Positions 7,877 through 26,625 are shown, counted from the first letter of the stretch. The stretch is DNA of 26,625 bases from a virus (IMGVR_UViG_3300032038_000557:1-26625), one strand, 5' to 3'. The notes: a model not told the origin generated them from the letters alone. Program-made: numbers and translations.

Positions 7877-8299
7877 CATTACATCAGAATAAACATTCAT
7901 AGTTAAGTTTTCTCATAAGAAGTCAGCATTCTTTGATTCTCCATATTGCTCTCCATCTTTAATAAAGATACAATCAAGAATATTCTTTCAATCTTGTCTT
8001 TTCAGAAGTTCTTGAAAATCAATATATTGTGCAGTAGTAACCTTTTGTAAATCAAGAACTGGTCTAAACTTTTGATCTTTAACTAAATAGACAGATTTAG
8101 CTGGCTTCTCAGTATATTTCTTCTCAAGGAAGGATAGTTCATTTATATAGTAAGCTACTTTACTTACTGGAATGTCTCCCATCTCCACTCCTCAAATTGT
8201 CTTTATGAGTTGTTCTTGTGCTTCTAATGGATCTTCCGTATTAGCAAGTATATCAACAATCTCATAGTATTGTTTAATCGTTATATCATCTCACTTCAT
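7694..8299 (-). CDS. Hypothetical protein, 201 aa, candidate tail assembly chaperone-like
   Basis: ATG 8297-8299 overlaps the TerL TAA by 1 nt. Fragments 7694-7900 and 7988-8188 are in frame. In-frame TGA at 7913, 7988, 8192 and 8291. Stop is TAA at 7694-7696. Confidence 0.7.
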
Positions 8300-9507
8300 T
8301 ATATAATAGATATTTTATAGTTCCCTCTGTTGGTAAAGATAGAATCTCAACAAATAGCAGTAGCCATAACAGTATCATCTTTATAACCAGAAGGAGCATT
8401 ATAAGTTATTTTACCAGAACGAGTTGTTTCAGCAGAATACATTCTCAGTTCCTTTAATAGTTCATTATCTCTAACTAATTGAATATCACCATTTTCTAAA
8501 GCAACTCCCAATTTATCAATTATCTTGTTCTTAGTAGTATTAGATGTATTGAACTTTATGATACGTTGTTTAGTCTTCTTCTGCAACATATCAAAGTAAA
8601 CATTACCGATAGAATTGGATTCCACTGTAATCTTTATTGGATTGTACTGATTGATTAGATTGGCAATAACGTTTACTTGCTCTGTGGGAGTCTTATCATT
8701 AAAGTATTTGATAAAGACCATATGTCCAGTATGCGTAATACAACAAACGGCTGTATTATCTTGTCCATTACCAGATCCTCAGTCAATTCCAAAATATAGA
8801 TTTTCTGTAAGATCAGCTGGTTCACTTTCAATACAACCTTCAATATTCGTAAACAGAGAACCATCATCATTTAAGAATTGACCTAATATCTCAGTAGTGA
8901 ACTTCTTTCTTGAATAGGTTCTCTTATAAAATTCAATTTGTTCTTCACTAATCAATTCAGAACGATCATATAAAGATCAGTCAAAGCTTCTCTTCTTATC
9001 AGAATCTGGTTCCGAATAAGTAGTATAAAAGTATCCATCCGAAGTAAGTGGAGTGGAACAGATTAGGATGCTTGCTTTATGTACTGTAGTTGTTGGTAAA
9101 AGGATGTCTATTACATCTTGTGGAATAAAAGCACATTCATCTAATACAAGTATTCCAGAAACTGTATATCCTCTAAGTGCATCTTTTTGTTCTGCAGACT
9201 TAAAGAGTATTTCAGATTTGTTCTTAAACCTTATATGAAGTAAAGACTCATTTGCTTTCTCTATTATTCCAGAAGCATCTAATAACTTGACAAACTCATT
9301 AAACATCTTTCTAGATTGAGCTAGTGTTGGTTCAACTACTATAGAAGTAGTTTTAGGTAAAGAGCAAGCTTTCAGTAGTTCAGCTAGACAGAGAAAGGAT
9401 TTACCACTCTGTCTAGGACTGAGAACTACTGCAATCTTTCCTTTGATGTCAAATCAATCATAAACTTCCTTTTGCCATTCATAGAGTTTAGGAAATACTA
9501 TCTTCAT
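8299..9507 (-). CDS. terL: Terminase large subunit, 402 aa
   Basis: Walker A SPRQSGKS, Walker B ILVLDECAF, and nuclease motif FGID-W-GSGNG. Fragments 8347-8721 and 8977-9306 plus their gaps are in one frame, with TGA at 8347, 8779, 8977 and 9454 and no TAA or TAG. Start is ATG 9505-9507 and stop is TAA 8299-8301. Confidence 0.9.
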
Positions 9508-10886: not shown

Positions 10887-11007
10887 TATCGTATTCCAAG
10901 AAAGCTAGGTAACATATCTGCATACAATCATCAGTTACTTTCCATTTCTTCTGCATAAGTTCAAAGAAATCTAAGTATTTGAGTAGCAGTTGATTATTCG
11001 TTAACAT
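10774..11007 (-). CDS. Hypothetical 77-aa protein with a sigma region-2-like pattern (possible N-terminal half of the sigma-like factor)
   Basis: ATG 11005-11007. DDCMQICYLAFLEY...MEF-W-IVRLIKNQWFSKT resembles sigma70 region 2. TGA at 10840. Stop is TAG at 10774-10776. Confidence 0.55.
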
Positions 11008-11167
11008 CTTCTAAAGCATTTAAAGTTGTAGAGCAACCAGCAAATAAACCAGTCAAGTAATAGAGTTTAATCACTTCTGGTTTATCAGCTTTTATAAGTT
11101 CATTGATCTCTGTTTCTAGTTTACTAAGTTCTTCTCTTTTTGATTCAATAAATTCTTTAATGTTCAT
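10994..11167 (-). CDS. Hypothetical small protein, 57 aa
   Basis: ATG 11165-11167 follows the upstream TAA directly (TAAATG). Stop is TAA at 10994-10996. No Trp codons. Confidence 0.5.
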   Translation of the reverse strand: MNIKEFIESKREELSKLETEINELIKADKPEVIKLYYLTGLFAGCSTTLNALEDVNE

Positions 11168-11314
11168 TTAGCTAAGTAGTTTAAGTTCATAATCTTTAAT
11201 TTCAAAAGGGAGTAAAGAGAGAAGATAATCATCTTCCACTGTAGTATTATCAGAAGTTACTATTACTCTATCTCCCAATTCTGTTTCTTCAATTCAGATA
11301 TCGAAGTTAATCAT
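11168..11314 (-). CDS. Hypothetical small acidic protein, 48 aa
   Basis: ATG 11312-11314 overlaps the end of the upstream gene. TGA at 11294. Stop is TAA at 11168-11170. Confidence 0.45.
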
Positions 11315-11705
11315 AGTCAAATCATTTAAAGGAGTTAAGATTAAGTTCCACTTTATCGGATCATTGTCATTCACCACCAAAATCAGTAGTCTGTCTAGCA
11401 TACATTGGAGTAACCTTCAAATAAGTAGAAGCAGGATCAGTAGTAACACATCATCTATCATTAAATAATATTATAAGTATTCCTTTATTTGAAATTAACT
11501 CTTTGAATTTATCTAAATTGACTATAGTAGTTGGATATTGATTGGAATCAAATCTCCTTCGTTTAAGTTCTATTTCGTATCTTTTGTCTTTCCAGATGAA
11601 TCAACCATCCATTCTGGAGAATTGATCTTCATATCAGTAGAGTTGAATTCCTCACTTATCTAAGAAGATCTGTTCAATTTGTTGTTTAGAAATTGTATCA
11701 GTCAT
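11307..11705 (-). CDS. First gene of the early operon, hypothetical protein, 132 aa
   Basis: ATG 11703-11705 lies about 20 nt downstream of a -7 promoter box. Seven in-frame TGA (11322, 11361, 11367, 11451, 11601, 11634, 11652) against one TGG. Stop is TAA at 11307-11309. No ORF is reported here in the standard-code track. Confidence 0.7.
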
Positions 11706-11725
11706 AGGCTATTAGTTTTACAAGA

Positions 11726-11756
11726 CAAATATAACAAATACTTATGACTTTTCAAA
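11726..11756 (-). promoter_or_regulatory. Bacteroidota-type promoter P1 (-33 TTTG, 19-nt spacer, -7 TATATTTG)
   Basis: Minus strand reads TTTG (11756-11753), a 19-nt spacer, then TATATTTG (11733-11726). This matches the Bacteroides -33 TTTG / -7 TAnnTTTG consensus. It has the same architecture as P2 at 14219-14249. Confidence 0.6.
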
Positions 11757-11802
11757 ATATTTTAATAAGTTTTTTAAAATATTTATTAATCAAAGGTTCA
11801 CA

Positions 11803-11880
11803 TTACTATTAGATCTTTTATTATATATTTTTTATTGATACGGGATATTCGGTACTACCTAAGCAGGATATTTGGTACTT
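11803..11880. repeat. Regulatory repeat R1 (about 80 percent identical to R2), carrying two 13-nt sites GGATATTCGGTAC and GGATATTTGGTAC
   Basis: Aligned by eye with 14064-14143. Sub-sites are at 11843-11855 and 11866-11878, 23 nt apart in direct orientation. Confidence 0.65.
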
Positions 11881-11946
11881 CAAGAAAAAATACTATATTT
11901 GCGACTAACATCATCAGTCTTCATCTTAAGTATCTAAAAGTCAGTG

Positions 11947-11983
11947 CAGGATAGTCGAGGGTTCGAGTCCCTTCCGCACCGCA
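11947..11983 (+). other. tRNA 3'-end fragment, candidate attP core
   Basis: T-arm GAGGG-TTCGAGT-CCCTT (11957-11973) is followed by the acceptor 3' strand CCGCACC and discriminator G. The matching 5' strand GGTGCGG and an anticodon arm are absent upstream. It lies 115 nt upstream of the integrase gene. Confidence 0.6.
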
Positions 11984-11992
11984 GAATAACTG

Positions 11993-12027
11993 AAAAGGTA
12001 CTTTGGAGTAGATCTAAGGTACCTTTT
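11993..12027 (+). terminator. Hairpin just downstream of the tRNA-like fragment
   Basis: AAAAGGTAC (11993-12001) pairs with GTACCTTTT (12019-12027) around a 17-nt loop. It could terminate the reconstituted tRNA gene after integration. Confidence 0.35.
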
Positions 12028-12097
12028 CTTATTAGAAATGGTTCTTAGTTGCGACTGATTTGAAATGGAATGAAAACTAGTCTCAATTATTATTGTT

Positions 12098-13225
12098 ATG
12101 AGAACCACATTCAACATTGGTTTCGTTTGCAGACCATCAAAAGCAAACAAGTTAGGATTAGCTCCAGTAGAGCTAACAATCATCATTAATGGCTCTAGAG
12201 CTTACTTAACGTTACAAAGAAAAGAGAATCCAAGTAAGTTCAAGAAGTTGATTGCACAATCTAAACAGAATGATCTTAAGACTTATCTGAATCTGGTAGT
12301 TGATAAGATCAATGAAGCACAATTAGAACTACTGAGAAAGGGAATTCCAGTAACAGTAGAGGGATTGAGAGAATTCATTAAGAATGGTTGTACATCTTCT
12401 TATAAGGTAAGTAATCTCTTCTCTGATTACTTGATTCTATTAAGGAATAGAATAGGTGTAGATCTCACATATCCAGTTTACAGAAAGTATGAGATAGTTA
12501 GAGATTTGTTCTTATCCTTTACTGGAAATGTTGAATTATCATCTATCACTCCCTCTATCATTACTTCATTCTACATTCATCTAAACAAGCAATATCTTCC
12601 CACTACATCAGCAGGAATGATGACTAAGTTGAAGACAGTTATGCTTTACGCATTCAACAATGCTTTAATTAGACACAATCCTTTTTCGACTACTAAGATC
12701 GTTAAGAGAGTCAAAGAAGTTGAATTCTTAACAGAGAAAGAAATTCAAGTAATCAAGAAAAAGAACTTAATCTCTAGATTAGATAAAGTGAGGGATCTAT
12801 TTCTGTTTCAATGCTTTACTGGATTAAGTTATGTAGATATGTCTTTATTAACTAAAGATGATTTCAAAGTAAACGAATACAATCAAATCTTCATTCATAA
12901 AGAAAGAGTAAAGACTGGAGTTTCATTCACTACTGTATTACTGGAAGATGCTGTTAGAATAATCAAGAAATACGATTATCAACTTCCAGTAATAAGTAAT
13001 CAAAAGTACAATGGCTATCTAAAAGAGATTCAAGATATCTGTTGTATCAAGAAATCCCTTCATTCGCACATAGGAAGACACACAGCAGCCACTTATCTAC
13101 TGAATAAGGGAATACCCTTAGAGACAGTTTCAAAGATCTTAGGACACAGTAATATCAAGCAAACACAACATTATGCTAAATTGGTTGATAAGTCTGTCTT
13201 TGCTGCAATAAATAAAATTTCATAA
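12098..13225 (+). CDS. int: Tyrosine recombinase / phage integrase, 375 aa, Bacteroidota-style arm-binding N-terminus
   Basis: Intact ORF under any code. C-terminal catalytic motifs HSHIGRHTAATYLL and LGHSNIKQTQHYAKL (R, H-x-x-R, H/Y pattern). Stop is TAA. The protein contains no Trp at all, so neither TGG nor TGA occurs. Confidence 0.9.
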   Translation: MRTTFNIGFVCRPSKANKLGLAPVELTIIINGSRAYLTLQRKENPSKFKKLIAQSKQNDLKTYLNLVVDKINEAQLELLRKGIPVTVEGLREFIKNGCTSSYKVSNLFSDYLILLRNRIGVDLTYPVYRKYEIVRDLFLSFTGNVELSSITPSIITSFYIHLNKQYLPTTSAGMMTKLKTVMLYAFNNALIRHNPFSTTKIVKRVKEVEFLTEKEIQVIKKKNLISRLDKVRDLFLFQCFTGLSYVDMSLLTKDDFKVNEYNQIFIHKERVKTGVSFTTVLLEDAVRIIKKYDYQLPVISNQKYNGYLKEIQDICCIKKSLHSHIGRHTAATYLLNKGIPLETVSKILGHSNIKQTQHYAKLVDKSVFAAINKIS

Positions 13226-13279
13226 CTTTGCATATTCCCATTGAGGTTTATTTCCTTTTTGGGTCTATACAAATTCTAC

Positions 13280-13320
13280 AGTACAGCTCCGTTGTGATAA
13301 TGCAGCTGTACTTTTCTTTA
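13280..13320 (+). terminator. Rho-independent terminator of the integrase gene
   Basis: AGTACAGCT (13280-13288) pairs with AGCTGTACT (13304-13312), followed by TTTCTTTAT. Confidence 0.6.
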
Positions 13321-13336
13321 TAGGAATCGAACCTAT
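13320..13336 (-). other. Isolated tRNA T-arm-like element (ATAGG-TTCGATT-CCTAT)
   Basis: Perfect 5-bp stem plus the canonical GGTTCGATTCC T-loop on the minus strand. The flanks did not fold into a cloverleaf: the acceptor would be AAAGAAA with no partner, and there is no anticodon arm. Confidence 0.4.
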
Positions 13337-13362
13337 TATGTAAGTAATTGATTTAGAATAAG

Positions 13363-14058
13363 TTAAATAATAGAGGTAAGAGACTTGTCGCTGATAAGTC
13401 TCTTTTTTCTTGGACATCCACCAAGACACCATCTTTCAAAAGCTTTTGGATTATCAGCTTTATCGATGTAAGAGAAATAAAAACTCTTAATCGTAACTGA
13501 TTGATAATCAATCAGCTCCATCTTCATTTCAGATATTGATTTTGAACAGTCATTCATAATTAATTGATTATCAATAACATAACCACTATTGTTTTTCCTA
13601 ATAAAACCCTCTCTCAAACCCTCTCCAAGTAGCTTAAAAAAGGTACTCCTACCTATTTTTAATTGCTTAATAAGCTCATTATTACTCAAACCAATTCAAT
13701 TTCCTTCTCCAAATCTGAATTCCGCTAATCTTAAAATGAAAGCAATCATCTTCGGATCCAACTTGAATATATCATTACTAATCCACATAAAATCCCTATT
13801 CTGGTTAACTACTTGATAGCTAACCAGATTTCTTCCCTTAGTATGATGTGAAGTTTTCTTTACTAGACCTTTCTTTACTAAAAGACTAGTGATCTTACTG
13901 ATAGTATCTAAATCTTTAATTCCAGTCTTCTGAGATATCTTCTCTCTTGTTATATGACTTTCTCCTTTTCAGTTTGAATAGCAGCTTAAAGTGGCATACA
14001 CTAAATACTCTCTATTACTTAAACCATTATGCTTCTTAACCTTAAATGAATTTTTCAT
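13363..14058 (-). CDS. DNA-binding protein with two winged-helix/HTH-like segments, 231 aa; candidate lysogeny or early regulator, or replication initiator
   Basis: ATG 14056-14058. Fragment 13363-13689 extends upstream in frame. I translated the whole region: TGA at 13696 and 13969, no TAA or TAG. HTH-like segments are SHITREKISQKTGIKDLDTISKITSLLVKKGLV and LSNNELIKQLKIGRSTFFKLLGEGLREGFI. Confidence 0.7.
13378..13410 (+). terminator. Second plus-strand hairpin terminator inside the 3' end of the convergent gene
   Basis: AAGAGACTT (13378-13386) pairs with AAGTCTCTT (13396-13404), followed by TTTTCT. It may act bidirectionally between int and the convergent gene 13363-14058. Confidence 0.4.
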
Positions 14059-14063
14059 TGAAC

Positions 14064-14143
14064 TTACTATTAGATTTTTTATATTATATCTTTTATTGAT
14101 ACTGGATTTTCAGTACCACTGATACCTGATTTTCGGTACTCAC
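14064..14143. repeat. Regulatory repeat R2, carrying GGATTTTCAGTAC and TGATTTTCGGTAC
   Basis: Sub-sites at 14104-14116 and 14127-14139, 23 nt apart as in R1. R2 abuts the ATG of gene 13363-14058. Confidence 0.65.
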
Positions 14144-14158
14144 TAATTTAAAAAGATA

Positions 14159-14176
14159 GGTGGAGTCTCCTCCACC
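14159..14176 (-). promoter_or_regulatory. GC-rich leader hairpin between promoter P2 and R2 (possible attenuator)
   Basis: GGTGGAG (14159-14165) pairs with CTCCACC (14170-14176) around a 4-nt loop. On the minus strand it is followed by TATCTTTTT. Confidence 0.35.
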
Positions 14177-14218
14177 AATCTTAAATTGAATATATGGCAA
14201 ATATTCTTTTCGATGAAA

Positions 14219-14249
14219 CAAATATAACAATTATTTTGAATAATTCAAA
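14219..14249 (-). promoter_or_regulatory. Bacteroidota-type promoter P2 (-33 TTTG, 19-nt spacer, -7 TATATTTG)
   Basis: Minus strand reads TTTG (14249-14246), a 19-nt spacer, then TATATTTG (14226-14219). The local sequence ACAAATATAACAA is shared with P1. Confidence 0.55.
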
Positions 14250-14257
14250 ATTATTCA

Positions 14258-14290
14258 ATAAAAAAAGAGTCTATTATATAGACTCTTTTC
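14258..14290 (-). terminator. Rho-independent terminator ending the late/lysis operon
   Basis: Perfect 9-bp stem AGAGTCTAT / ATAGACTCT (14266-14274 and 14278-14286) with a 3-nt loop. An A-run and a T-run flank it, so it could be bidirectional. It overlaps the TAA of the last late gene. Confidence 0.75.
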
Positions 14291-14489
14291 CAATATGTAT
14301 CTTTCCACATTCTTTACATACATAAGCTACATATCCACACTTCTTGAAATGTACGTTTATGTAATCTAATGCTTCTTCTTCATCTTTAAATGCTCTTTTA
14401 ACCTTTCACTTACCATTCTTCTTGGTTCAGTGACATCTGTAGTGAGTATGTTTGTTGCAATCAGATCTACTTCTCGAAATCATAGTCAT
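14274..14489 (-). CDS. Small Cys/His-rich (zinc-ribbon-like) protein, 71 aa, last gene of the lysis cassette
   Basis: ATG 14487-14489 overlaps the end of the endolysin gene. Cys/His pattern DCNKHTHYRCH...KKCGYVAYVCKECGKIH. TGA at 14406 and 14427. Stop is TAA at 14274-14276. Confidence 0.55.
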
Positions 14490-14976
14490 TCAATCTATTC
14501 ATTCAACCTCTTAAGAATACTCTTTGAGAAGGATTTCTCCTAACTATCTCATAAAAGAAATCTCTTCTTGCGTCTCATATCTTCTTAAATAAATCTTCTT
14601 GATTAGCCTCATTTAAGGCTCTTAAAGTGATTGGACCTATAATTCCATCAACTCTTACTTCAAGGAGCTTCTGTAGCCGTTTAATTGCTGTTATTGGACC
14701 ACTTCCTCAAGCTCAATCAACTAATATATTAGCTATCGATTGATTGACTATTCTATCTCCTTTCATCTTGTCCCAATAACCAATTTTAAAGATTAAATCT
14801 CATTGTCCATCAGTAATCCTTCTTAAATCCTCTACTGTCTTATCTAAACCAAAATACTTTCTAAAGACAGCAATAGTGATTCCCTTATTAGTAGCTCCCC
14901 CTTTATCTAATGGATGATTTGAGAATCCTCCTTCTCATTTAAGAATCTTCGGTTTTAGTTTCCTGTAATCCGCCAT
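14467..14976 (-). CDS. Endolysin: GH108-type N-acetylmuramidase with a PG_binding_3-like C-terminal domain, 169 aa
   Basis: No ORF is reported here in the standard-code track. Codon-by-codon translation gives [34 protein letters not shown]...GYWDKM...ILVD-W-A-W-GSGP...[10 protein letters not shown]...FLRG-W-MNRL. Six TGA (14503, 14575, 14707, 14713, 14800, 14935) against one TGG. Stop is TAG at 14467-14469. Confidence 0.85.
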
Positions 14977-16439: not shown

Positions 16440-17510
16440 TTAATTGTTAATTGAGTCATCTTCCCATTTGATAATGAATGGACTGATAATCAATGAATTA
16501 GCACCAATAATAGTATTAAATGCACTCTCTATTTCTTTCTGAATTGGAGAAATAACAGTCTTATTATATAACTTGAAAGCAGCTTCAAACTCTACTGCTG
16601 AGAATCCATTGTTCTCTGGATTTAATCCGAATAAGCAAGGATTTGCTCTAAAAGCAATAAAGATTTGCTCTCTAGACCTCTTAGAAAGAGTTTCATATTT
16701 CTTATCGAAATCATCACCATCTAATCTCTCTACAGTTACTCTATTGTCTTCTGAATCATTATAAGCGATTAAGATTCTTCCTGCATTCTGGAAACCACCA
16801 AACTTCTCATTTATTTGTCTTTCTATCTCTTCTTGCTGTTCTTCGTTTGGTTGCCCATTATTGAAAGAAATCACCACATTAGACATAAAGCCATTATTGA
16901 TGTTGTTTAGATGAAATTCATTGATACATTTCTCTATTTCACAAGGAATGACAGCAGCACCATATAAAGGAATAGGATACACACTTCTTGTAACATTCCC
17001 TTTACTGTAATATATGCTTCTAGGAGCAGGATGCTCTGGATCAAACTTTGGTATTTCAATATACTTTGCTCCCCAACTATTCCAATCATTTGAATAGTAG
17101 AACTCAGTATTCTTATCATTTGATCTCAATTTCATAAAATCAATATGATTCAATCACTTTACTCTACCATCTAAACTTCTAATGATTTCAATTGCAAATC
17201 CACCGAATATCAGTTTATCTATTAAGAGTTTCCTCAACAGAGTATTGATTGTATCTCCACTCTCATTCACTACACCAGAAGGAAAGTAAGTACACTGTGC
17301 ATCATCTCCACAAGCAAAATCAACAGTACCGTTGATGATAGATTGTAGAGTGGCTACACTATTATATAAATCCCAAAGATAGTTGGGATAAGTATTTGTC
17401 TTTCCTCAATAGATCGGTTTCTTTGTCCTTACTTTAATTTCATCTGGTGAAGGAATATTGTTCACTACTATAGGATCTATCGCACTTAATTGAACTGTCT
17501 TATTCTCCAT
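16440..17510 (-). CDS. Portal protein, 356 aa
   Basis: ATG 17508-17510. Fragment 16440-17153 extends upstream in frame through TGA at 17154 and 17406 (context PIY-W-GK) with no TAA or TAG. The portal-like core reads FGGFQNAGRILIAYNDSEDNRVTVERL...REQIFIAFRANPCLFG. Confidence 0.8.
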
Positions 17511-17814
17511 ATGCTATATAACTATTTGATTTATTGTATGTTAGCTTACTTTCTTTCATTCCTATTCTAAGTAATCCAGTAGCTACTATCTTCGTTGGAT
17601 ATCCAATTAACAAACTGTTAAAGATGTTGTTTACGTCTATCTCTATATCTACTTGCTCTGGATTCTCTATTAGAAGATATTGATATTCAGCTTCTTTTGG
17701 ATCCTCCAGTTCTATTTGAAACTTATAGTATAATCCATCTGGATTCAAATCTTCCAGAATGTATTTATCAGTTTCTTTCGTTGTTGTGTTTTGTAATAAG
17801 AATGTATAATTCAT
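17500..17814 (-). CDS. Hypothetical protein, 104 aa
   Basis: Intact ORF ending in TAA. It overlaps the portal start by 11 nt. Confidence 0.6.
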   Translation of the reverse strand: MNYTFLLQNTTTKETDKYILEDLNPDGLYYKFQIELEDPKEAEYQYLLIENPEQVDIEIDVNNIFNSLLIGYPTKIVATGLLRIGMKESKLTYNKSNSYIAYGE

Positions 17815-17880
17815 AAAAATTCTATGTAAAATTGAGTTAAACTTCTTTAGATTAAAATATAATTGCCATCTAATTAGTAA

Positions 17881-17910
17881 GAAAAAGGGACTCCTAATAG
17901 GGAGTCCCTT
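17881..17910 (-). terminator. Rho-independent terminator inside the late region
   Basis: 10-bp stem AAGGGACTCC / GGAGTCCCTT (17885-17894 and 17901-17910) with a 6-nt loop. A T-run follows on the minus strand. Confidence 0.65.
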
Positions 17911-17916
17911 AATCAG

Positions 17917-18060
17917 TTAAATCTTAGCTAAAATGGCATTCAACTTTGCATCTACTTCAGCTTTAGTGTAGTGATCTCTTTCACTGTTAGTAGTAATTAC
18001 TCCAGCTTCTCTATAAACGTAAAACGTTTGTGGCTCTGTAGTATTTTTAAGAATTATCAT
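17917..18060 (-). CDS. Small hypothetical protein, 47 aa
   Basis: ATG 18058-18060 overlaps the upstream gene end. Sequence: MIILKNTTEPQTFYVYREAGVITTNSERDHYTKAEVDAKLNAILAKI. Stop is TAA at 17917-17919, just before the terminator. Confidence 0.4.
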   Translation of the reverse strand: MIILKNTTEPQTFYVYREAGVITTNSERDHYTKAEVDAKLNAILAKI

Positions 18061-18274
18061 TTTCTTTCTCGCTTTCTAGTTCCTTTAGCCAATTGTAAGT
18101 GGCATCTTCTTCTGCAGTAATCTCTCTGTAAACAGAAGTATCAGTAGTTAAAGGACAATTTGCTATTTTGGAGCTACTGTAGTTTTTGATATCTTCTGTG
18201 TCTTTATATGTTGTTATATAGTGATCATCATCAGCGATAATCTCTATAAAGTATTTTTTAGTATTGATTTTCAT
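18047..18274 (-). CDS. Hypothetical acidic protein, 75 aa
   Basis: Intact ORF ending in TAA. Confidence 0.55.
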   Translation of the reverse strand: MKINTKKYFIEIIADDDHYITTYKDTEDIKNYSSSKIANCPLTTDTSVYREITAEEDATYNWLKELESEKENDNS

Positions 18275-18286
18275 AGTCTAAATGTT

Positions 18287-21085
18287 TTAAGCCGTCATAA
18301 TAGTCCATCTCTTTGCAGTAGCAATAGCAATTTCCTCTTCACTTAAGAGAGCATAAGATGTTGCATTAAGATATAACTGAGCATCAGTTACAGTAGTATC
18401 ATCTGGAGCTGCTAAACCGTTGATCACATTCATAATGGATTCTTTAGTTAATGCAGTGAGTTTAGTTAGGATGAGTCGATGATCAACACCTCCGCTTCCA
18501 ACAAACGCTTTACCAAGATTAGTGAAACCACCAAGAGTTGTTAAGCTATTATATTTTTGATTGCGAGAAGCACCAAACGGATTCGCTTTAGCTACAGAAG
18601 TACAATCCATCGCTCCAATAGAAGTATAGCTAAAGGAAGCATTTGAGTTATTTGAGCCAAACATACTGGTAATATCAAAAGCATTTGGGCTATTGAATGC
18701 AGGAAGGCTAGTTATTCCAGTACAATCATAGAACATATAATCCATACCCTCAACGTTACTATAATCAAATTGAGGAATTGCAGTAAGGTTGACACAACTC
18801 TGAAACATACTTGTCATCGTAGTTGCTTTACTTGTATTATACGCAGGAACTGTTGACAATAGAGCACAACCCTTAAACATATCTCTGAAGTCAGTTACAT
18901 TTGCTGTATTGAAAGTTGGTGCAGTCTGTAAAGTTGAACAGTTTTGGAACATTTGCATACAATTCTGAAGTGAATCAGTATTAGTCAACGTTACATTTTT
19001 AAGATTCTTACAACCATAGAACATTTGATAAGCTGATCCAACGTCACCACCGCCAGAAGCATTCGCTAAATCAACCGATGCTCTTCTCAAACTAATGCAT
19101 CCACCAAATAAAGAATAGGAGGTAGCCTCTGAGGAAGGATTTATAGTTCTAAACTGTAGATCTGGTGCATACACTAAATTAACACAACCTTGGAAGAATC
19201 CAACACTACTATTTATAGTTTCTGTTATATCAACCTTCGGAGCATATACCATAGCTGGTTTATAACTCCAATACGTTGAATCATCTTCTGGAGTATAATT
19301 CTCTAAAAGATTAGCAGTAATAGCAACATCACTATTTATACCAACACTCGCTACATCTTCGCAGGTCCAACCCATTGATTCCCAATCAACGCATCCACCA
19401 CCAGAAGAAGGAACGTTAACAGTTATTGAAACACCATCAAAGTAATCAAACTGTTCTCCTTGATAATCAGAAGGAGTATAAGTATATGTTCCATTCTCTG
19501 TGATGGTTTCCTCTACATAACCAGTATGAGGATCATCTCCACCTCCACATTCAGCTTGTCCTTGAGCATAACCAGCATCATATCCTGCTGTATAACCTTC
19601 ATCAGTACCTTCAACACCAAGAATAGTTACACCAGATAAGATATTCTCTGGCTGTATGTTAGCATCAATTGAAGCAGTTACACCAGCAATAGTAACTTGC
19701 GAAAGAGCATCATAACCTTGATCTGGAGTTATAATCTGTTGAGCAGTAGAAGGATCAGCTGTCTTTGCTTGTAAAGTGGTTACAGAAGTAGGAACATTAA
19801 CGGTTATGCTTGCCGATCCATAGAAGTCAGCATCACTTTGCGTAGGATCAAATTCATAAGTTCCATTAGCAGTAATAGTTTCCTTTAAGTCAATAGATGA
19901 TGGTTCTGGAACAGCAACTGTTATGGAAGCACTATCAAATCCATCATACTGACTACCTTGATAATCAGAAGGATCGAAATTATATGTTCCGTTTTCAGTA
20001 ATAGTTTCTTGTAAAGCGGCTGTTTCAAATGTAGGGCATTCTGATTGTCCTTGAGCATAACCTTCATCCCAACCTGCTTGATAACCAGCATTTGTACCAG
20101 AAACACCAAGAATACTAACTCCTTCAATGATATTCTCCGGCTGTATATTATCATCAATTCCAGCAGTAACTGAATTGACTGTTACTTTATTTAATCCATC
20201 ATAATCATCATCAGCGGTAACTTCTATTGGAATTGTATTAGGAATGACTGTCTTACTTTGAAGTCTAGGTTCAATATCAACTTCCACTTGATTCCAACCA
20301 TCTTCTCTTGTAAAGACACCGTTCTCAGTAAAGGTAGTGGAAGTGAGTTTAGCTTTCTGTTCTGCAACACCAGCACTATGACCTTCATCATAGTAAGCAG
20401 AAGTATCTATGTTAGTAGTAATTTCAACACTTGATAAACCATCGTAGTTAGCATCTGGAGTAACAGCAGTAACTCCATTCTCTGTTATAGTAACAGTTTT
20501 CTCTTGAGTTGAGAAAGTAGGAATAGGGACATTAACAGATACATCTGAATAACCATCTTCTCTTGAATAATCACCATTAGCAGTTATATCAAGATGAGTA
20601 AGTTTAGCTTTCTGTTGTTCAGTACCAGCTCTATATCCTTCATTATAATATTTATCTGTATTAATATTGGTAGTAACGGATACACTAGATAAACCGTCAT
20701 AATTAGCATCTGGAGTTACTGCAGTCACTCCGTTTTCTGTAACAGTAATTGATTTCTCTTGAGTGGAGAAAGTGGGAATAGGAACATTCACATTAACTGA
20801 ATTGTAACCATCTTCTCTATCATACTGTCCATTAGCAGTAACTTCTAAAGAAGTAAGTTTTGCTTTTTGTTCCTCAATACCATCTTCTTTCCCTTCATTA
20901 TATAAAGCTTCATCACTAACTTCTACAGTGACTTTGCTATAACCGTCATAACCTTCCTCTGGAGTATAGACACCATTCTCAGTAGCAGTCAATTCAGTGA
21001 GAGTTGCTGAATTACCTTCGGTGTTCTGTCCAGCTCTTGTAGTAGTGTTAAGAGCGGTTTTTGGAGTTGTAAATTTAATTGCCAT
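18287..21085 (-). CDS. BspA-like / DUF285-type leucine-rich-repeat surface protein fused to tandem repeat modules, 932 aa; probable adhesin or receptor-binding protein
   Basis: The C-terminal third has repeats of the type NTxNVTxMxxMFxxCxxLxxxP (FQGCVNL, FGGCISL, FYGCKNL, FQNCSTL, FKGCALL, FQSCVNL, FYDCTGI). The N-terminal part has about 85-aa tandem repeats (QKAKLT...TENGV...DANYDGLSSV). There are 932 codons with 6 TGG and no TGA. Confidence 0.8.
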   Translation of the reverse strand: MAIKFTTPKTALNTTTRAGQNTEGNSATLTELTATENGVYTPEEGYDGYSKVTVEVSDEALYNEGKEDGIEEQKAKLTSLEVTANGQYDREDGYNSVNVNVPIPTFSTQEKSITVTENGVTAVTPDANYDGLSSVSVTTNINTDKYYNEGYRAGTEQQKAKLTHLDITANGDYSREDGYSDVSVNVPIPTFSTQEKTVTITENGVTAVTPDANYDGLSSVEITTNIDTSAYYDEGHSAGVAEQKAKLTSTTFTENGVFTREDGWNQVEVDIEPRLQSKTVIPNTIPIEVTADDDYDGLNKVTVNSVTAGIDDNIQPENIIEGVSILGVSGTNAGYQAGWDEGYAQGQSECPTFETAALQETITENGTYNFDPSDYQGSQYDGFDSASITVAVPEPSSIDLKETITANGTYEFDPTQSDADFYGSASITVNVPTSVTTLQAKTADPSTAQQIITPDQGYDALSQVTIAGVTASIDANIQPENILSGVTILGVEGTDEGYTAGYDAGYAQGQAECGGGDDPHTGYVEETITENGTYTYTPSDYQGEQFDYFDGVSITVNVPSSGGGCVDWESMGWTCEDVASVGINSDVAITANLLENYTPEDDSTYWSYKPAMVYAPKVDITETINSSVGFFQGCVNLVYAPDLQFRTINPSSEATSYSLFGGCISLRRASVDLANASGGGDVGSAYQMFYGCKNLKNVTLTNTDSLQNCMQMFQNCSTLQTAPTFNTANVTDFRDMFKGCALLSTVPAYNTSKATTMTSMFQSCVNLTAIPQFDYSNVEGMDYMFYDCTGITSLPAFNSPNAFDITSMFGSNNSNASFSYTSIGAMDCTSVAKANPFGASRNQKYNSLTTLGGFTNLGKAFVGSGGVDHRLILTKLTALTKESIMNVINGLAAPDDTTVTDAQLYLNATSYALLSEEEIAIATAKRWTIMTA

Positions 21086-21099
21086 ATTAACTTTATATT

Positions 21100-21137
21100 A
21101 AAAAAGCCGAGCAGAGCAAATCTGCCCATACTCGGCT
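21100..21137 (-). terminator. Rho-independent terminator after the major tail gene
   Basis: AGCCGAG (21105-21111) pairs with CTCGGCT (21131-21137), with an inner GCAGA/TCTGC helix. A T6 run follows on the minus strand. Confidence 0.65.
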
Positions 21138-21159
21138 CATTATTAAACATTAGTACAAA

Positions 21160-21729
21160 TTAGCAAGCATTTGCTACGTTACCTTTCATAGCAGTAACTG
21201 CTTCTGCAGTAAGTTCATAAGGATAAGTCTTGGAATCGGTAGAAAGAGTGATTAAGTAAGCATTCTGATCACCTTTTGCAGTACCAGTGTTACCAGAACC
21301 AGCAGATGCACTTACATAATCATCTAAACCAAGATACCAGTATTTACCATTGGAATCCTCAACAACTGCCACCACTTGACCAATAGACATAGCTGCGATT
21401 TCGAGTCTCTTAGCAGTTTCCATCTTGGTAAAGACAAGAGAAAGCTCATTTGCAACATAGTTGGTTCCAGTAGTTTCATCTACATTAAGAGTGGAAGTTA
21501 AACTTCCAGTCTCTTTTCTAAACTGATATTCGTACCATTTTGCATCAGCTTTAAGAGTGATTGCGGAAATGGCAAGATCCCTATCATCATTATCGGAAAC
21601 TGGATCAACGGTAACTGCAGTTACATCAGAGTAACGAGTTAACCAAACTCTTTTGATACCACCGAGAGATGACTGGCAATCCATACAAATACCAGCAAGG
21701 GTTATACTTGAACAATTAAGATTAGGCAT
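21160..21729 (-). CDS. Putative major tail protein, 189 aa
   Basis: Intact ORF followed by a strong terminator. The pattern KWYEYQFRKETGSLT...ELSLVF...VVAVVEDSNGKYWYLGLDD...GTGTAKGDQNAY resembles siphovirus major tail proteins as I recall them. No TGA. Confidence 0.55.
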   Translation of the reverse strand: MPNLNCSSITLAGICMDCQSSLGGIKRVWLTRYSDVTAVTVDPVSDNDDRDLAISAITLKADAKWYEYQFRKETGSLTSTLNVDETTGTNYVANELSLVFTKMETAKRLEIAAMSIGQVVAVVEDSNGKYWYLGLDDYVSASAGSGNTGTAKGDQNAYLITLSTDSKTYPYELTAEAVTAMKGNVANAC

Positions 21730-21757
21730 AGTAAAAAATTAATTAAATGTTTATAAA

Positions 21758-22669
21758 TTAAACAGTTGCGAGAACAACCTCGTTAGGGAATGCAACCTGA
21801 ACACCGAAGTTGAATTCGATATCAAGACGGAATTCTCTATTATCTTGTGAGTACCAGAACTCAAACTTCTCTTGATCATCCTGCATATCACAGCCATAGA
21901 AGAAATTCTTCTCTAACTGACCAGCAACGATGGAATTGGTTCCATTAAGTCCGTTAACAGCAATAACCTTAACAGAAGTACCAGGAATGATAACCTCATC
22001 AACTGGAGTACCAGGATTGTAGTGATATAAGTTCTTCTCAACGAGAGCCTGCACAAAGAGACGGAATTTGTCTGCACCCATAACGATAGAGGAACCTTCA
22101 AGAACCTCAACGGGAATTGCATTGTAAACAGCAAGAACTGCATTGTAAACATCAGTAGCAGTGGTAAGAGTAACAGTAACCTTGTTAACACCAGTGGCTG
22201 CATTAAGGATCTTTAAGAGACCATCAACTTTATTGAGGTTTTCATCTGCACTGTCAGTATCACCCTGCCAAATAGCCTTCTCAACAGCAGCATTGACACT
22301 CTTGATGACTTCGTTGATGAAATTCTCCTCGAAAGGAAGAGTCTTCTGACCAGCAGCAACTCTAACAGCATACTGAGTTCAGTATTTGAGCATTTCCTTA
22401 TCACAGTAAGCCATATTGATCTTTATGTGACCAGTGTGAAGGATTCTCTGAGAAAGAGTCTGTGCACCACCTTCTTCCCAACCGCAAGTAAGTCCGTCAC
22501 CGAACTCAACTTCAGTAGAAAGAAGATTGAGAGCTGCGTCTAATTTAACGCCAGTCTGTAAATTGAAAAGACTAGCAGATTTTGATTTAATAACCGCTTG
22601 AGCGATAAGAGGGAGTCTATGCTGCTCAATGTACGCAGTCATAGAACTAAAAATAGGGTTTGTAGCCAT
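21758..22669 (-). CDS. Major capsid protein, 303 aa
   Basis: Fragments 21758-22081 and 22379-22669 are in frame. I translated 22082-22378 and it is open. The single TGA is at 22379 (context MLKY-W-TQYAV). It lies directly after the protease and scaffold genes. Stop is TAA. Confidence 0.8.
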
Positions 22670-22697
22670 AGTTTAAATAAGTTGTTTTATTAATTAA

Positions 22698-23246
22698 TTA
22701 TTTCCTAGAAGCTTCTTTAATACCCTCTAACATCGCATTGAAATTGCGGTCTTTTGTAGTAAGGTTAGCTTCCTTTTTATCTATCTCTACTTCTGCAGAT
22801 TCAATTGCTGACATTTCACACACTTTCTGAAGTTGTGCATTAGTTTCAACACCAGCAGACTCTACTGCAGCTACTTTCTTAACGAGCTGATCTACAATAT
22901 TATAGAGCTCGTTTATTTCTTTACGGATCTCTTCAATTGCATCTGGAGTGGATTCCACTTCTGGAGTCTCTTCGAGAGCTTCTTCTACTTCTTCAACTTC
23001 TTCAACTTCTTCTTTGGTTTTGATGTCAGTGATGATTCCATCAGCAACTACATATGTTCTGCCATCATCAGCAACATATTCTCCATCAGCAGCAGGAATA
23101 AACTCACCATCAGATTCAACGTAAACAGCGATACCGACAGTAACATCATCTTCTGCATAATTAAGAACAGCATCAGCAGTTCTGATTTCTCCAAGTTGAG
23201 CAAGAAGCTTTTTTAACTCTACTTTAAGTTTAGAAAATTTACTCAT
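22698..23246 (-). CDS. Scaffolding protein, 182 aa
   Basis: Acidic helical protein with EEVEEVEEVEE, located between the protease and capsid genes. No Trp codons. Confidence 0.6.
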   Translation of the reverse strand: MSKFSKLKVELKKLLAQLGEIRTADAVLNYAEDDVTVGIAVYVESDGEFIPAADGEYVADDGRTYVVADGIITDIKTKEEVEEVEEVEEALEETPEVESTPDAIEEIRKEINELYNIVDQLVKKVAAVESAGVETNAQLQKVCEMSAIESAEVEIDKKEANLTTKDRNFNAMLEGIKEASRK

Positions 23247-23251
23247 TTGGT

Positions 23252-23836
23252 TTACTTTAAATGTTTAATTTGATTGTATATCATTTCAGCTTCTTTCCGT
23301 TCATCTTCAGATAATGCAGTGGCATTAGTTGGAGAAAGAACAGCTTCAATACTGAAACCTTTATAGTCATTTGTAATCTCATTAAAGAGATCTTCACTGG
23401 TTACTTTATATTCTATCATTAAGGAACCATCTGGAATATCTTCAAATCCTTCTATCTTCTCTATTTTAGAATTAGTAACTCATATAGAAATTGGATATAT
23501 CGTACCATCAGATATATCCTTTTGGTTGTGATTCGTATCTACATTAACCGCACTACCATCTCTAATCATCTTAGAAGCAAGATTCTCTATAGCATTCTTT
23601 GAGAAAGCTATATAGTATTCTTCTTTTCCATTTCTTCTGTATATTGGCTGATCTGGTATTAATAAAGCACCGTAAACAGTATGATTTGAATCATTCTTTA
23701 CCAGTTTGTATTCTTTAGAAAGAGTTATGAAATTCTTTTCTATTGCTGGTCTTTCAACTAATGAGATTCTGTTGATTCCTTCTTCATCATCATTAACGTC
23801 TAAATAGATCAGCGGTAAATCATTATATAGTTGCAT
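23252..23836 (-). CDS. XkdF-like prohead protease, 194 aa
   Basis: The N-terminus INRISLVERPAIEKNF resembles the XkdF-type protease family. Fragment 23480-23836 continues through TGA at 23480 to TAA at 23252-23254. Confidence 0.55.
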
Positions 23837-23905: not shown

Positions 23906-26625
23906 TTAGAAACTTGCATTTTCTTCAGTGACTCTTACTTTGTTTTGCTTTTTAGTTATGTCACTTTCAAGCACATAACACTTGATAGGATCATTTAACT
24001 TGTCAAGTTCTTTATCTCCTAAGAGTTCTCTGGAGTAAGTAATAGGAGCTTGAATCATACCAGCAGGAGCTTGTACAGAAGATCCACTAATAGAAGCACT
24101 CATAGAAGCACTTAAACCAAGTTCGGAACCAGCTTTAAGAATCTGTTTTACATTAGCAATACCAGAAGCAATTGCAGCAGCTGCAGCAGCAATACCCAAA
24201 GCAGGACCAACATAAGGAATACCAGACATAGCTGCATAAGCAGAGTTAGCTGCCTTATAAGTATCAATAGTTGCTTGTGCAACGGCAAATCCTTTACCAA
24301 CAGCAGTTTCTTCACCAACAAGAACAGACATAGCTCCCATAACTTCAGAAGCTACATCAAAAGTAGCATTCATAGCTTCTTGTCTCTTTTGCTGAACAGA
24401 TTGGAAAGCAGCTAAGTTATCTTCTGCATTCTTTTGTTCAGCATCTTGTAGAGCAATCGTATTTTCAGCAAGAGTTCTCTGAATCTCCATTCTTGCATCA
24501 GCATCAGTAGTTTCTAAATCTAGCTGTTGCTTTAAAAGATCATTCTCTTGCAGTATTCTTGTTCGAGTAAGTTCAAGAATCTTATTATTATACTCTATCT
24601 GCTTCTCATACTCAGTATTAACATCGTCTCTGGATTGATAGACATTTAAGAATGTTCCTCTAGTTCCTTGATCTCTATATTTACCAACTTCATTTGGATT
24701 GTTATTTAATCCAAGTAAATTGCTAAATCCTTGAGTATAAGTAGTTTGGAATGTTTGCTGTCTAGGATCTCTTAGATTAGAAGTAGCATATAAAGCTCTA
24801 ATGTTCTTTATATGGTCTTTGATTCTATCTATTTCATCCTTTCTTTCTTTATCTTCCTTATCATTACCTAACTTTTCGTATTTGTCATCTAAATCAGCAA
24901 TAGCTTTCTGTTTAGCTTCTTCCAGCTCTACAGTATCATAGCCATATTTCTTAGCTAATTCAATTAAACGATCATAGTAAGCAGCAGTATCTCTATATTC
25001 CTTTACTTCTTCATCAAGTCTTGAATCTCTTATTTGCTCAAGACCAGCTTTCAGTTCTTTGAGTTCTGCTTCTGTTTGATCTTTAACTGGATTATTATTG
25101 TCATTATTACCGCCATCTGGACTACGATGACCAAATACATCTCAGTATCTCTGCCAGAATGTATCAGATTCTGTATATAGTTTCTTTAATCGTTCATTGA
25201 TATCTGTAGTTAACTGATCAAGATCTTTCTTTATCTTATTTGCTTGTGCTTCTCTTGCTTGATCAGCAACTGCTTGCTGTGCTTCAAGATCTCGTTGATC
25301 AACTCAACCACCACCATATAACACATAAGCAGAAGATGTTTGGTCTCTTTGTGTTAATTCTACATTAGCAAGCTTATCTTCGAGTTCTAATCGTTTTGTC
25401 AAGTAATCCTCATAGAGTTTAGCAGCAGCATTCTCAGTAGCCAATGCTCTACCTCTATCCATAAGTGCCTTGATGTAAGTATCTGTATTCTTTACAAGAA
25501 GATCTTCTGCAGCATCTACATTATCAATACCTTCCTTAATGGAATCTAACTTATCTCGATAATCAAGTAAGAACTGTTCTTTGGCAGCTTCGTTTCCTAA
25601 AGTTCTGAAAGTCTTAGCTAACTGTTGTAAAGTGGATATGGTTCCAGCAACACTCTTTGCTGTTTGTTCCCTTATCTCTTTATTGAACTTAGCCATTTCC
25701 CTTCTTGCTTCAGAAGTTCTCTTAATAAGATCGACAAGTTTATAAGCTGCTGTTACTAAAGCAGTTATGAGTAAAGTCCAACCAACTGTTTTAATAACTT
25801 GTCAGAATGCACCTCAAGCTTTTGATAATCCATTAACTGATTTAGTAGTTGTTTGAGTGGCAGCAGAGACTGAATCAAGATCAGTCTTAATATCAGCTAG
25901 TATTTTACTATCATCACCAAGATTTTCTTCTAGATTATGCAGTCCAGTAGCTAATTGATCAAATGAAACATTCAGTTCTTTAGCTGTAGCTCTAAGAGCA
26001 TCTTCATCAAAGGTGAAATCCCTTAACAGTTTATGAAGTTTCTCTGGTTTACCAGCTAATAATAAACTAATTGCATCATTCAATTCACCAACATTCATCT
26101 TGGCTTGTGTAGTATGCTGATTGTATATGCTGATGATATCCGAAAGTTTGTTCATATCACCAGTATATCCAATCATAGCTTTTTGAGCAGCAATAAGTTC
26201 ATCATTATATGCTTGCCATTTTTCATTTAATGGAACTATTGTTCTCCCTTGTGCTTCAAGAGCATCTGTTTGTTGCTGAATTATCTGAGTATTATTTGTA
26301 ATGACAGTTCCTCCAGCAGCAGCAGATGCTTTACCAGCCACTCCACCACCAGCAGCATTAGGTAAGTTTACTTTGTTGACATCCATCAACCTATCAACAG
26401 ATTGATCTATCTGTTTAGCAATAGGATTGAAAATGTTCTTTAAACCAGAGAACATATCAATTAATTTCTTAGCTTCTGGAATCAAATCCTTGAATCCAGA
26501 TAATCCTTGAATTAATTGAATTGTCCTTGCTGTAGTAGCTAAAGCTTTATTTAAATCTTCATCATCTCTAGCAAGTAGATTGATTGCAGCATTAACAGCA
26601 CTATACGATTTAGCTAACGATTCTC
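23906..26625 (-). CDS. Tape-measure-like protein, C-terminal 906 codons (partial at the right edge; 988 aa if joined to 1-247)
   Basis: Fragments 23906-24490, 25304-25696 and 25814-26485 are in one frame. All gaps translated: TGA at 25142, 25304, 25802 and 25814, no TAA or TAG. It has long coiled coils, a TM-like segment W-GAF-W-QVIKTVGWTLLITALVTAAY and a Gly/Ala-rich block GPALGIAAAAAAIASGIANV. The frame is open to 26625. Confidence 0.7.

Follow-up and report, generated by a model that had tools for sequence, protein, structure and literature searches.

How does a phage that reads TGA as tryptophan have its genes translated when it carries nothing that could read the codon? This question is raised by positions 11706-12097 of IMGVR_UViG_3300032038_000557, a viral DNA of 26,625 nt (~26.6 kb) that was analysed over its whole length and is hereafter called the window; it holds ~28 genes under genetic code 4, with the integrase gene alone on the plus strand. 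An initial annotation had proposed that neither a suppressor tRNA nor another decoding factor is visible in this stretch and had left the source of UGA decoding unexplained. We find that the phage has no gene for a tRNA, a release factor, an aminoacyl-tRNA synthetase or any recognisable enzyme of tRNA modification, and that 11706-12097 is a hub for attachment and regulation rather than a locus for decoding. The explanation that we favour, at a little less than an even chance, is that a UGA-reading suppressor is supplied in trans by another resident or co-infecting element to a phage of standard-code Bacteroidales.

TGA is a full sense codon for tryptophan in nearly all genes of this phage. Counting open reading frames (ORFs) of at least 100 codons, coverage of the window is 0.69 under code 11 and increases to 0.93 once TGA is taken as a sense codon; treating TAG as sense adds little. 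The 28 genes end in TAA (24) or TAG (4) and never in TGA, which occurs 64 times in frame and makes up ~54% of the tryptophan codons genome-wide. At the six TGA positions of the lysin, the Porphyromonas gingivalis structure PDB 2nr7 has tryptophan at four and phenylalanine and leucine at the other two, and TGA positions 177 and 243 of the large terminase (TerL) are tryptophan in standard-code relatives. Across distant homologues, tryptophan is the commonest residue opposite TGA (18%, with glycine at 5%), as it also is opposite the TGA codons of the early gene at 11307-11705. Both the lysin alignment and these residue counts rule out code 25, in which TGA specifies glycine. The base that follows the 64 in-frame TGA codons (+4) shows the background distribution (p = 0.5), with 16 TGA-T contexts among them; TGA-T is reportedly the strongest terminator context for release factor 2 (RF2; Poole et al. 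1995). Because the +4 base is unbiased, those 16 contexts included, decoding looks efficient and context-independent, and readthrough at leaky contexts was rejected.

The initial annotation had made the puzzle conditional on the window being the whole genome, and this proved to be so. The evidence lies in one gene that spans the ends of the contig:

23906-26625, continuing in frame into 1 to ~243, minus strand: tape-measure gene, its ORF uninterrupted through the 1/26625 junction

The joined tape-measure protein aligns with its homologue in the related contig L001 over the junction (query 65-124, subject 63-121, 1-residue gap). Since the ORF is in frame across 26625/1 and aligned in this way, the contig is a closed circle and the complete genome of a small temperate tailed phage; the window holds no terminal repeat. 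Continuity at the junction rules out an incomplete contig, and missing sequence therefore drops out as an escape clause.

The annotation's view that no decoder is visible held in every search of this genome. ARAGORN returned no tRNA or tmRNA gene at default settings or in circular mode at 90% thresholds, and no credible tRNA in mitochondrial mode. At relaxed thresholds of 80-85%, with and without introns, it gave scattered low-score calls within coding genes, none of them credible; a 'SeC' call at these thresholds was discarded, being built on the tRNA-Asp fragment described below with a 56-nt 'intron'. Rfam yielded no match over the whole window at E<=1 and no tRNA match at E<=10 on 11700-12100 and 10900-14350; at the latter threshold, noncoding regions gave a 16-bit minihelix-like match to a T-arm plus acceptor piece. 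A custom scan for T-arms preceded by a YU-UCA-RN anticodon arm produced no candidate on either strand. Gene products were annotated by Pfam and PHROGs searches, and among all of them no release factor, aminoacyl-tRNA synthetase, deaminase or tRNA-modification domain was found, most early genes having no detectable function.

Two further features bear on this search:

11307-11705, minus strand: first early-operon gene, PD-(D/E)xK nuclease fold, Hjc/RecU resolvase-like, 7 TGA and 1 TGG
13320-13336, minus strand: T-arm-like hairpin of 5 bp, located between the convergent int and rep-like genes; no cloverleaf and no tRNA part

The count of seven TGA codons in the first early gene, from which the initial annotation had argued, was reproduced, and its dismissal of the T-arm-like element at 13320-13336 was likewise borne out. 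The AlphaFold model of the early product (predicted local distance difference test score, pLDDT, 82) matches DpnI, Hjc and RecU in Foldseek at a template modelling (TM) score of ~0.56, and residues D33, E46 and K48 are invariant; this protein is thus predicted to be a resolvase-like nuclease and no decoding factor. An orthologue is present in six of seven TGA-recoded relatives and in none of ten TAG-recoded or standard-code relatives, a pattern that may reflect just divergence, the ten being more distant overall.

The noncoding DNA amounts to ~1 kb in all, and a plausible role could be assigned to each stretch longer than ~130 nt. The initial annotation had listed 11706-12097 and 14059-14273 as the only stretches above about 150 nt outside coding sequence. 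Both are as it described, and 'only' did not stand, there being a third:

17815-18046: gap in the gene calls that contains a terminator hairpin and an ORF of 47 aa but nothing tRNA-like

The 11706-12097 region and the adjoining integrase gene contain the following features:

11726-11756, minus strand: early-operon promoter of Bacteroidota type, TTTG-N19-TAtaTTTG (repeat family D19), with a second copy at 14219-14249
11842-11879, no strand assigned: two iteron- or operator-like direct repeats, GGATATTYGGTACT (repeat family D7)
11871-11901, plus strand: Bacteroidota-type promoter, a pattern match, directed toward the tRNA fragment and the integrase
11899-11906, plus strand: TTGCGACT motif, candidate arm-type integrase site, with a second copy at 12049-12056; the pair flanks the att core
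11954-11982, plus strand: attP core, whose 29 nt exactly match the 3' end of Bacteroidales tRNA-Asp(GUC), comprising variable loop, T-arm and acceptor strand
11993-12027, plus strand: terminator hairpin AAAAGGTAC...GTACCTTTT with a T-run, from its fold; same layout in L001, L003 and L213
12098-13225, plus strand: tyrosine integrase (Arm-DNA-bind_5, Phage_int_SAM_5, Phage_integrase), by Pfam/PHROGs

The 3' tRNA fragment that had been noted here is real, its identity to the end of the tRNA-Asp(GTC) gene being complete over 11954-11982. This core lies 116 nt upstream of int; the sequence 5' of it has diverged and forms no cloverleaf, and the 5' half of tRNA-Asp was looked for in the genome and is absent. 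The contigs L001 and L003 have the same layout by int with the 3' end of a different tRNA. In L213, a Bacteroidales-like contig, an integrated element with a 60%-identical integrase adjoins tRNA-Arg, followed by a terminator and TTTGCGAC motifs. Because the same layout recurs with another tRNA in L001 and L003 and beside tRNA-Arg in L213, we assign 11706-12097 to an attP site with a divergent control region. The terminator at 11993-12027 would end transcription of the tRNA-Asp gene rebuilt after integration.

The TTGCGACT motif recurs in identical or near-identical form (TTTGCGAC; variants TTTGTGAC and TCTGCGAC) next to int in L001, L003 and L213, and TTGCGAC(T/C) occurs one to three times beside the integrase genes of the family, in free and integrated forms alike; from this recurrence in relatives, such motifs are probably arm-type integrase binding sites. 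The block containing the GGATATTYGGTACT repeats is duplicated at 14064-14140 (77 nt, 79% identical), with GGATATTYGGTACT variants at 14101-14140, and similar repeats adjoin the HTH_36 gene in L009. They may be a replication origin or operator sites for the rep-like protein. An RNA of ~11905-11983, running from the promoter to the tRNA piece, folds no better than shuffled sequences (z = -0.15) and has no anticodon arm; it was rejected as a functional tRNA-like RNA on account of this shuffle-level fold and the other tRNA 3' ends found at this place in relatives.

The integrase itself (375 residues) contains no tryptophan codon of either kind (0 TGA, 0 TGG), so it would be translatable in a standard-code cell. 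An exact look-up found its sequence nowhere else on record, and its homologues, together with a metagenome scan, led solely to standard-code elements of the same integrase family.

To place these features in the lineage, we compared the window with its TerL relatives, which share 44-88% identity and come from rumen and gut assemblies as contigs of 20-38 kb. TGA recoding is found in 12 of them (L001-L005, L009-L012 and L133-L135), and L006-L008 and L137-L142 use the standard code. A further relative, L136 (IMGVR_UViG_3300012979_002208; TerL 41% identity), is TAG-recoded, its coverage reaching 0.98 when TAG is sense but 0.70 under code 11 and 0.71 when TGA is sense, so that code-11, code-4 and code-15 members occur within one terminase family. 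No suppressor tRNA was found across 96 family loci, including the 12 TGA-recoded and the one TAG-recoded relatives. Since the 12 recoded relatives are also without one, the absence of a decoder is a trait of the lineage and not an assembly accident. The only tRNA in close relatives is a phage tRNA-Ser(GCU) in L010 (6154-6241) and L012 (1806-1893), AT-rich, scoring 51.5 bits with Rfam, equipped with its own promoter and located just upstream of the early genes; L009, with the same TerL, is without it. A noncoding stretch of ~350-400 nt between two Bacteroidota-type promoters (L009 7190-7600, L010 5664-6074, L011 2783-3193, L012 1315-1725) is 99-100% conserved in these four contigs, which come from different samples; Rfam has no match for it, and it is a candidate structured RNA. 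It was rejected as a shared decoding RNA, being absent from the window and all other loci. BACON domains, which the initial annotation had named among its host signs, were seen in tail-fibre genes of relatives. Deposited phages gave no DNA match and TerL matches of at best <=28% identity, and a single protein query of IMG/VR returned no relative.

The signs of the host are Bacteroidota-like, as the initial annotation had suggested, and we consider it, on indirect evidence, probably a standard-code member of the Bacteroidales. An exact 21-mer of the tRNA fragment occurs in at least 120 GTDB genomes, nearly all Bacteroidales (Cryptobacteroides, Muribaculaceae, rumen RUG metagenome-assembled genomes (MAGs) and horse-faeces MAGs). 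In almost every match listed it forms the 3' end of a complete tRNA-Asp, the exceptions being att-type fragments or truncations at contig ends. The tRNA-Asp loci among the matches listed have a code-11 ORF coverage of 0.77-1.0, mostly above 0.9, with a small gain under code 4, and a guanine-plus-cytosine (GC) content of 39-62%. A handful of matches labelled as other phyla are probably mis-binned; the one examined, an 'Eggerthellaceae' contig, has the standard code and 49% GC, and its genes for Hsp20, serine dehydratase and amidase are ones that we take to be of Bacteroidales type. This match was accordingly dropped as a lead to a code-4 host. In the window, TTTG-N19-TAnnTTTG promoters number 4 for 0.55 expected, three of them well placed, and a Shine-Dalgarno-like motif precedes 2 of 27 genes at a background of 11%; the tRNA-Asp core, the Arm-DNA-bind_5 integrase and the GH108 lysin agree with these signs. 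Integrase relatives in rumen metagenomes adjoin tRNA genes in standard-code Bacteroidales contigs.

Recent surveys place code 4 only in Mycoplasmatales, gut Eggerthellaceae, a single family of the Patescibacteriota and a few reduced symbionts belonging to the Pseudomonadota and Verrucomicrobiota. In the literature to 2026, surveys that cover hundreds of thousands of genomes report no code-4 Bacteroidota, in agreement with the initial annotation, which knew of no such lineage. The integrases of TGA-recoded relatives and their large opposite-strand neighbours contain 0 TGA and 15 TGG, as expected if these genes are translated where TGA still terminates.

Separately, at other tRNA-Asp loci (L013 140-160, L067 99-119, L099 and L125), a second T-arm plus acceptor copy (GCGCGGGTTCGAGTCCCTTCCGCACCGC) lies ~156 nt 3' of tRNA-Asp and forms no cloverleaf, and in L095 the 3' part of tRNA-Asp is fused to unrelated DNA. 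These copies and the L095 join look like att scars or junctions of other elements at the same tRNA-Asp site.

With no decoder in the phage and a standard-code host group, we infer that decoding is therefore supplied in trans, and the reading of a suppressor provided by another element is one to which we give slightly under even weight. In a standard-code cell, the integrase, a 57-aa early ORF and part of the block at 17500-23246 would be translated in full; integration would be the default outcome, and the code itself would silence the early, replication, packaging, tail and lysis genes. Lytic growth would require a UGA-reading tRNA-Trp in the same cell. Its likeliest source would be a UCA-anticodon suppressor from another TGA-recoded element that is resident or co-infecting, for which crAss-like, Jade, Sapphire and Agate phages with suppressors, found in the same habitats, are examples; a less likely source would be the host strain itself. 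Borges et al. (10.1101/2021.08.26.457843) detected TGA suppressor tRNAs in just 35% of the phage genomes recoded at TGA and did not settle the mechanism. In their model, lysogeny genes are translatable at once and lytic genes stay locked until a code switch, and a recoded phage could respond to suppressors from co-infecting phages. The TGA-free integrases and neighbouring genes of the relatives match both the pattern and the model of these authors.

Several points weigh against supply by another element. No suppressor donor was identified, and no integrated copy of the phage or of a TGA-recoded relative was found in host contigs, the host being known to order level only. The number of GTDB matches to the 21-mer is a lower bound. 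The integrase of the window, having no tryptophan codon at all, is by itself silent on TGA avoidance, and TGA does occur in some of the small opposite-strand ORFs of L133, L134 and L009. Moreover, recoding reaches the first early gene and the replication initiator, so that outside help would be needed for all steps but integration, an unusual lifestyle that has no experimental precedent.

Self-sufficiency is what a protein-based switch would offer, and the fact that the lineage as a whole is suppressor-free would fit it. Here a phage protein, perhaps the product of a TGA-free ORF such as 10994-11167 (57 aa), would disable or sequester RF2 or modify tRNA-Trp(CCA), and a near-cognate tRNA would then read UGA. 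The many early genes of no detectable function leave room for such a protein, and Borges et al. (10.1101/2021.08.26.457843) also weigh phage modification of host tRNAs or of the translation machinery. According to the literature, UGA is read by tRNA-Trp(CCA) variants that have a 4-bp anticodon stem, A9C or G24A; those with the 4-bp anticodon stem exist in standard-code bacteria, one Bacteroides species among them. However, no release-factor, deaminase or tRNA-modification domain is encoded, and the first early gene specifies a predicted resolvase-like nuclease; the early genes are TGA-rich, so few candidates could be produced before the switch; and the unbiased +4 base runs counter to near-cognate readthrough unless RF2 were fully removed. 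We regard this switch as unlikely. Since tRNA-Trp with a 4-bp stem or with G24A works, a UCA anticodon is not strictly required, which keeps both the protein-based option and a decoder of the host strain alive. In the latter, the chromosome of the strain would supply an extra tRNA(UCA), or a UGA-reading tRNA-Trp(CCA) normally outcompeted by RF2, and would so limit the host range. Knowledge of the host to the level of its order leaves space for such a strain; yet with RF2 present these tRNAs gave partial readthrough only (literature), which ill fits proteins with 6-11 TGA codons or the 16 TGA-T contexts, and the TGA-free integrase-side genes of relatives imply that TGA terminates where they are expressed. 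We hold a host-strain decoder for rather more unlikely.

The initial annotation had listed three options: a host that natively reads UGA as tryptophan, a suppressor located elsewhere, and a non-canonical mechanism. The native option has become disfavoured in view of the standard-code tRNA loci and the TGA-free integrases and neighbouring genes of recoded relatives, and we judge it distinctly improbable. It would invoke an undescribed member of the Bacteroidales or one of the low-GC gut code-4 bacteria (Equivita and Gorillivita of the Eggerthellaceae, or Mycoplasmatales), and would readily explain a TGA codon that is present in every module, the first early gene included, never serves as a stop and shows no context bias; the phage GC of 33% also falls inside the 31-40% range of gut code-4 Eggerthellaceae. 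Against this stand an attP core that is a Bacteroidales tRNA-Asp, whose loci among the matches listed (at least 120) look standard-coded, the Bacteroidota-like promoters, Shine-Dalgarno scarcity, integrase type and GH108 lysin, surveys without a single code-4 Bacteroidota, and close relatives with the standard code or with TAG as a sense codon. A hidden non-canonical suppressor RNA, be it a split, permuted or armless tRNA or a promoter-driven transcript ending in the tRNA-Asp piece, appears very improbable, despite the suspicion of Borges et al. (10.1101/2021.08.26.457843) that non-canonical tRNAs go undetected. The promoter at 11871-11901 and the terminator at 11993-12027 do bracket an RNA of ~75 nt with a T-arm and an acceptor-like end, but its fold is at shuffle level and it lacks an anticodon arm, relatives have a different tRNA 3' end there, as att sites would, and the scarce noncoding DNA, with its assigned roles and no UCA-arm plus T-arm candidate on either strand, leaves it little room. 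That the element is defective or decaying, with its TGA codons as inactivating mutations, has nothing specific in its favour and is scarcely credible: TGA stands at tryptophan or aromatic positions, all 28 genes are long ORFs under code 4, the pattern is kept across different samples in at least 12 related contigs, and the genome is a closed circle.

Compared by description only, the window most resembles the small temperate recoded prophages of the Garnet and Topaz type (Borges et al. 2022; 10.1101/2021.08.26.457843). Both are ~25 kb and circular, with a tyrosine integrase that lies beside a tRNA att site and is free of the recoded stop, nearly all other genes being recoded; standard- and alternative-code relatives occur in one clade, and most members lack a detectable suppressor tRNA. 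A standard-code Bacteroidales host is likewise shared with Garnet, for which Prevotella is predicted. The likeness to Garnet thus concerns size, lifestyle and host, plus the existence of the TAG-recoded TerL relative L136, whereas Garnet and Topaz are TAG-recoded (Gln) and the lineage of the window reads TGA as tryptophan. Unlike in the published cases, the absence of a suppressor is seen here in a closed genome and in every relative examined.

With the TGA-recoded crAss-like, Jade, Sapphire and Agate phages (Yutin et al. 2021; Borges et al. 2022) the window has in common the reading of TGA as tryptophan, Bacteroidota hosts and a gut or rumen habitat. Those genomes, however, are ~100-200 kb and usually keep early and replication genes in the standard code, whereas the window is 26.6 kb and recoded from its first early gene; many of them carry tRNA-Sup(UCA), and sometimes RF1 (release factor 1) or tryptophanyl-tRNA synthetase (TrpRS), and the window none of these. 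A suppressor-free genome still fits the TGA-recoded group, because such a tRNA is found in just 35% of the code-4 phage genomes published. Phages of the code-4 hosts Mycoplasma and Spiroplasma also read TGA as tryptophan, in all their genes, and neither need nor carry a suppressor, but here the signs are of a walled standard-code Bacteroidales host and the recombinase genes of relatives avoid TGA. As to the attachment site, the window conforms to the tRNA-gene attP of tyrosine-integrase phages and islands (T-loop sublocation class; Williams 2002), having the tRNA 3' end beside int and a terminator of its own, with identity that extends from immediately 5' of the T-arm to the end of the acceptor; in this case attP was read from the free phage genome and from relatives, and no attL or attR junction was observed.

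The remaining annotated features of the genome are these:

8299-9507, minus strand: TerL (Pfam/PHROGs)
13363-14058, minus strand: HTH_36 protein, replication initiator or DnaD-like, 2 TGA (Pfam/PHROGs)
14059-14273, minus strand: second regulatory region, with the promoter at 14219-14249, a hairpin segment at 14150-14216 and iteron-like repeats at 14101-14140
14467-14976, minus strand: lysin, GH108 plus PG_binding_3 (Pfam/PHROGs), the nearest protein being from P. gingivalis
16440-17510, minus strand: portal (Pfam/PHROGs)
17500-23246, minus strand: TGA-poor, GC-richer block, 1 TGA and 13 TGG versus 61 and 39 elsewhere (Fisher p = 2e-4)
21758-22669, minus strand: HK97-like capsid protein (Pfam/PHROGs)
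23252-23836, minus strand: XkdF-type protease (Pfam/PHROGs)
minus strand: two very large tail or fibre proteins (Pfam/PHROGs)

The block at 17500-23246 has a GC content of 0.35-0.40, versus ~0.31-0.33 elsewhere. Besides the major capsid protein, it encodes a DUF285/BspA-LRR protein of 932 aa, with internal repeats of 255 nt, and a scaffold-like protein; the latter name is a guess from the position of an acidic, unannotated product. The block looks like a module newly acquired from a standard-code relative. Within the second regulatory region, the segment at 14150-14216 (minus strand) is ~60 nt long, comes after a TAtaTTTG promoter and ends in the strong hairpin GGTGGAGGAGACTCCACC with a T-run, upstream of the rep-like gene. 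It folds at z = -4.1 and has a weak, sub-threshold Rfam match (24 bits) to the Bacteroidetes FopS small RNA, and could be a small RNA or a transcriptional attenuator.

The puzzle that the locus poses is real and already published, most TGA-recoded phages being without a detectable suppressor (Borges et al.), and the translation of suppressor-free recoded phages is an acknowledged open question. The published figure of ~65% without a detectable suppressor mixes incomplete genomes with possible detection failures. Given a closed small genome, roles for its long noncoding stretches and 12 relatives alike, the gap here stems neither from missing sequence nor from a missed canonical tRNA. The lineage is thus a compact test case of 28 genes for distinguishing a code switch supplied in trans, by phages or host strains, from a new protein-based mechanism, and it bears on the idea that the genetic code itself acts as a prophage repressor. 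It is a rather doubtful but conceivable proposal that the phages of this whole lineage are obligate genetic-code hitchhikers that never carry a decoder, prophages kept silent by untranslatable genes that would turn lytic only when another element, such as a suppressor-bearing recoded phage, switches the code, or that they instead shut off RF2 by a protein of their own; should the hitchhiker reading be true, it would constitute helper dependence at the level of the genetic code.

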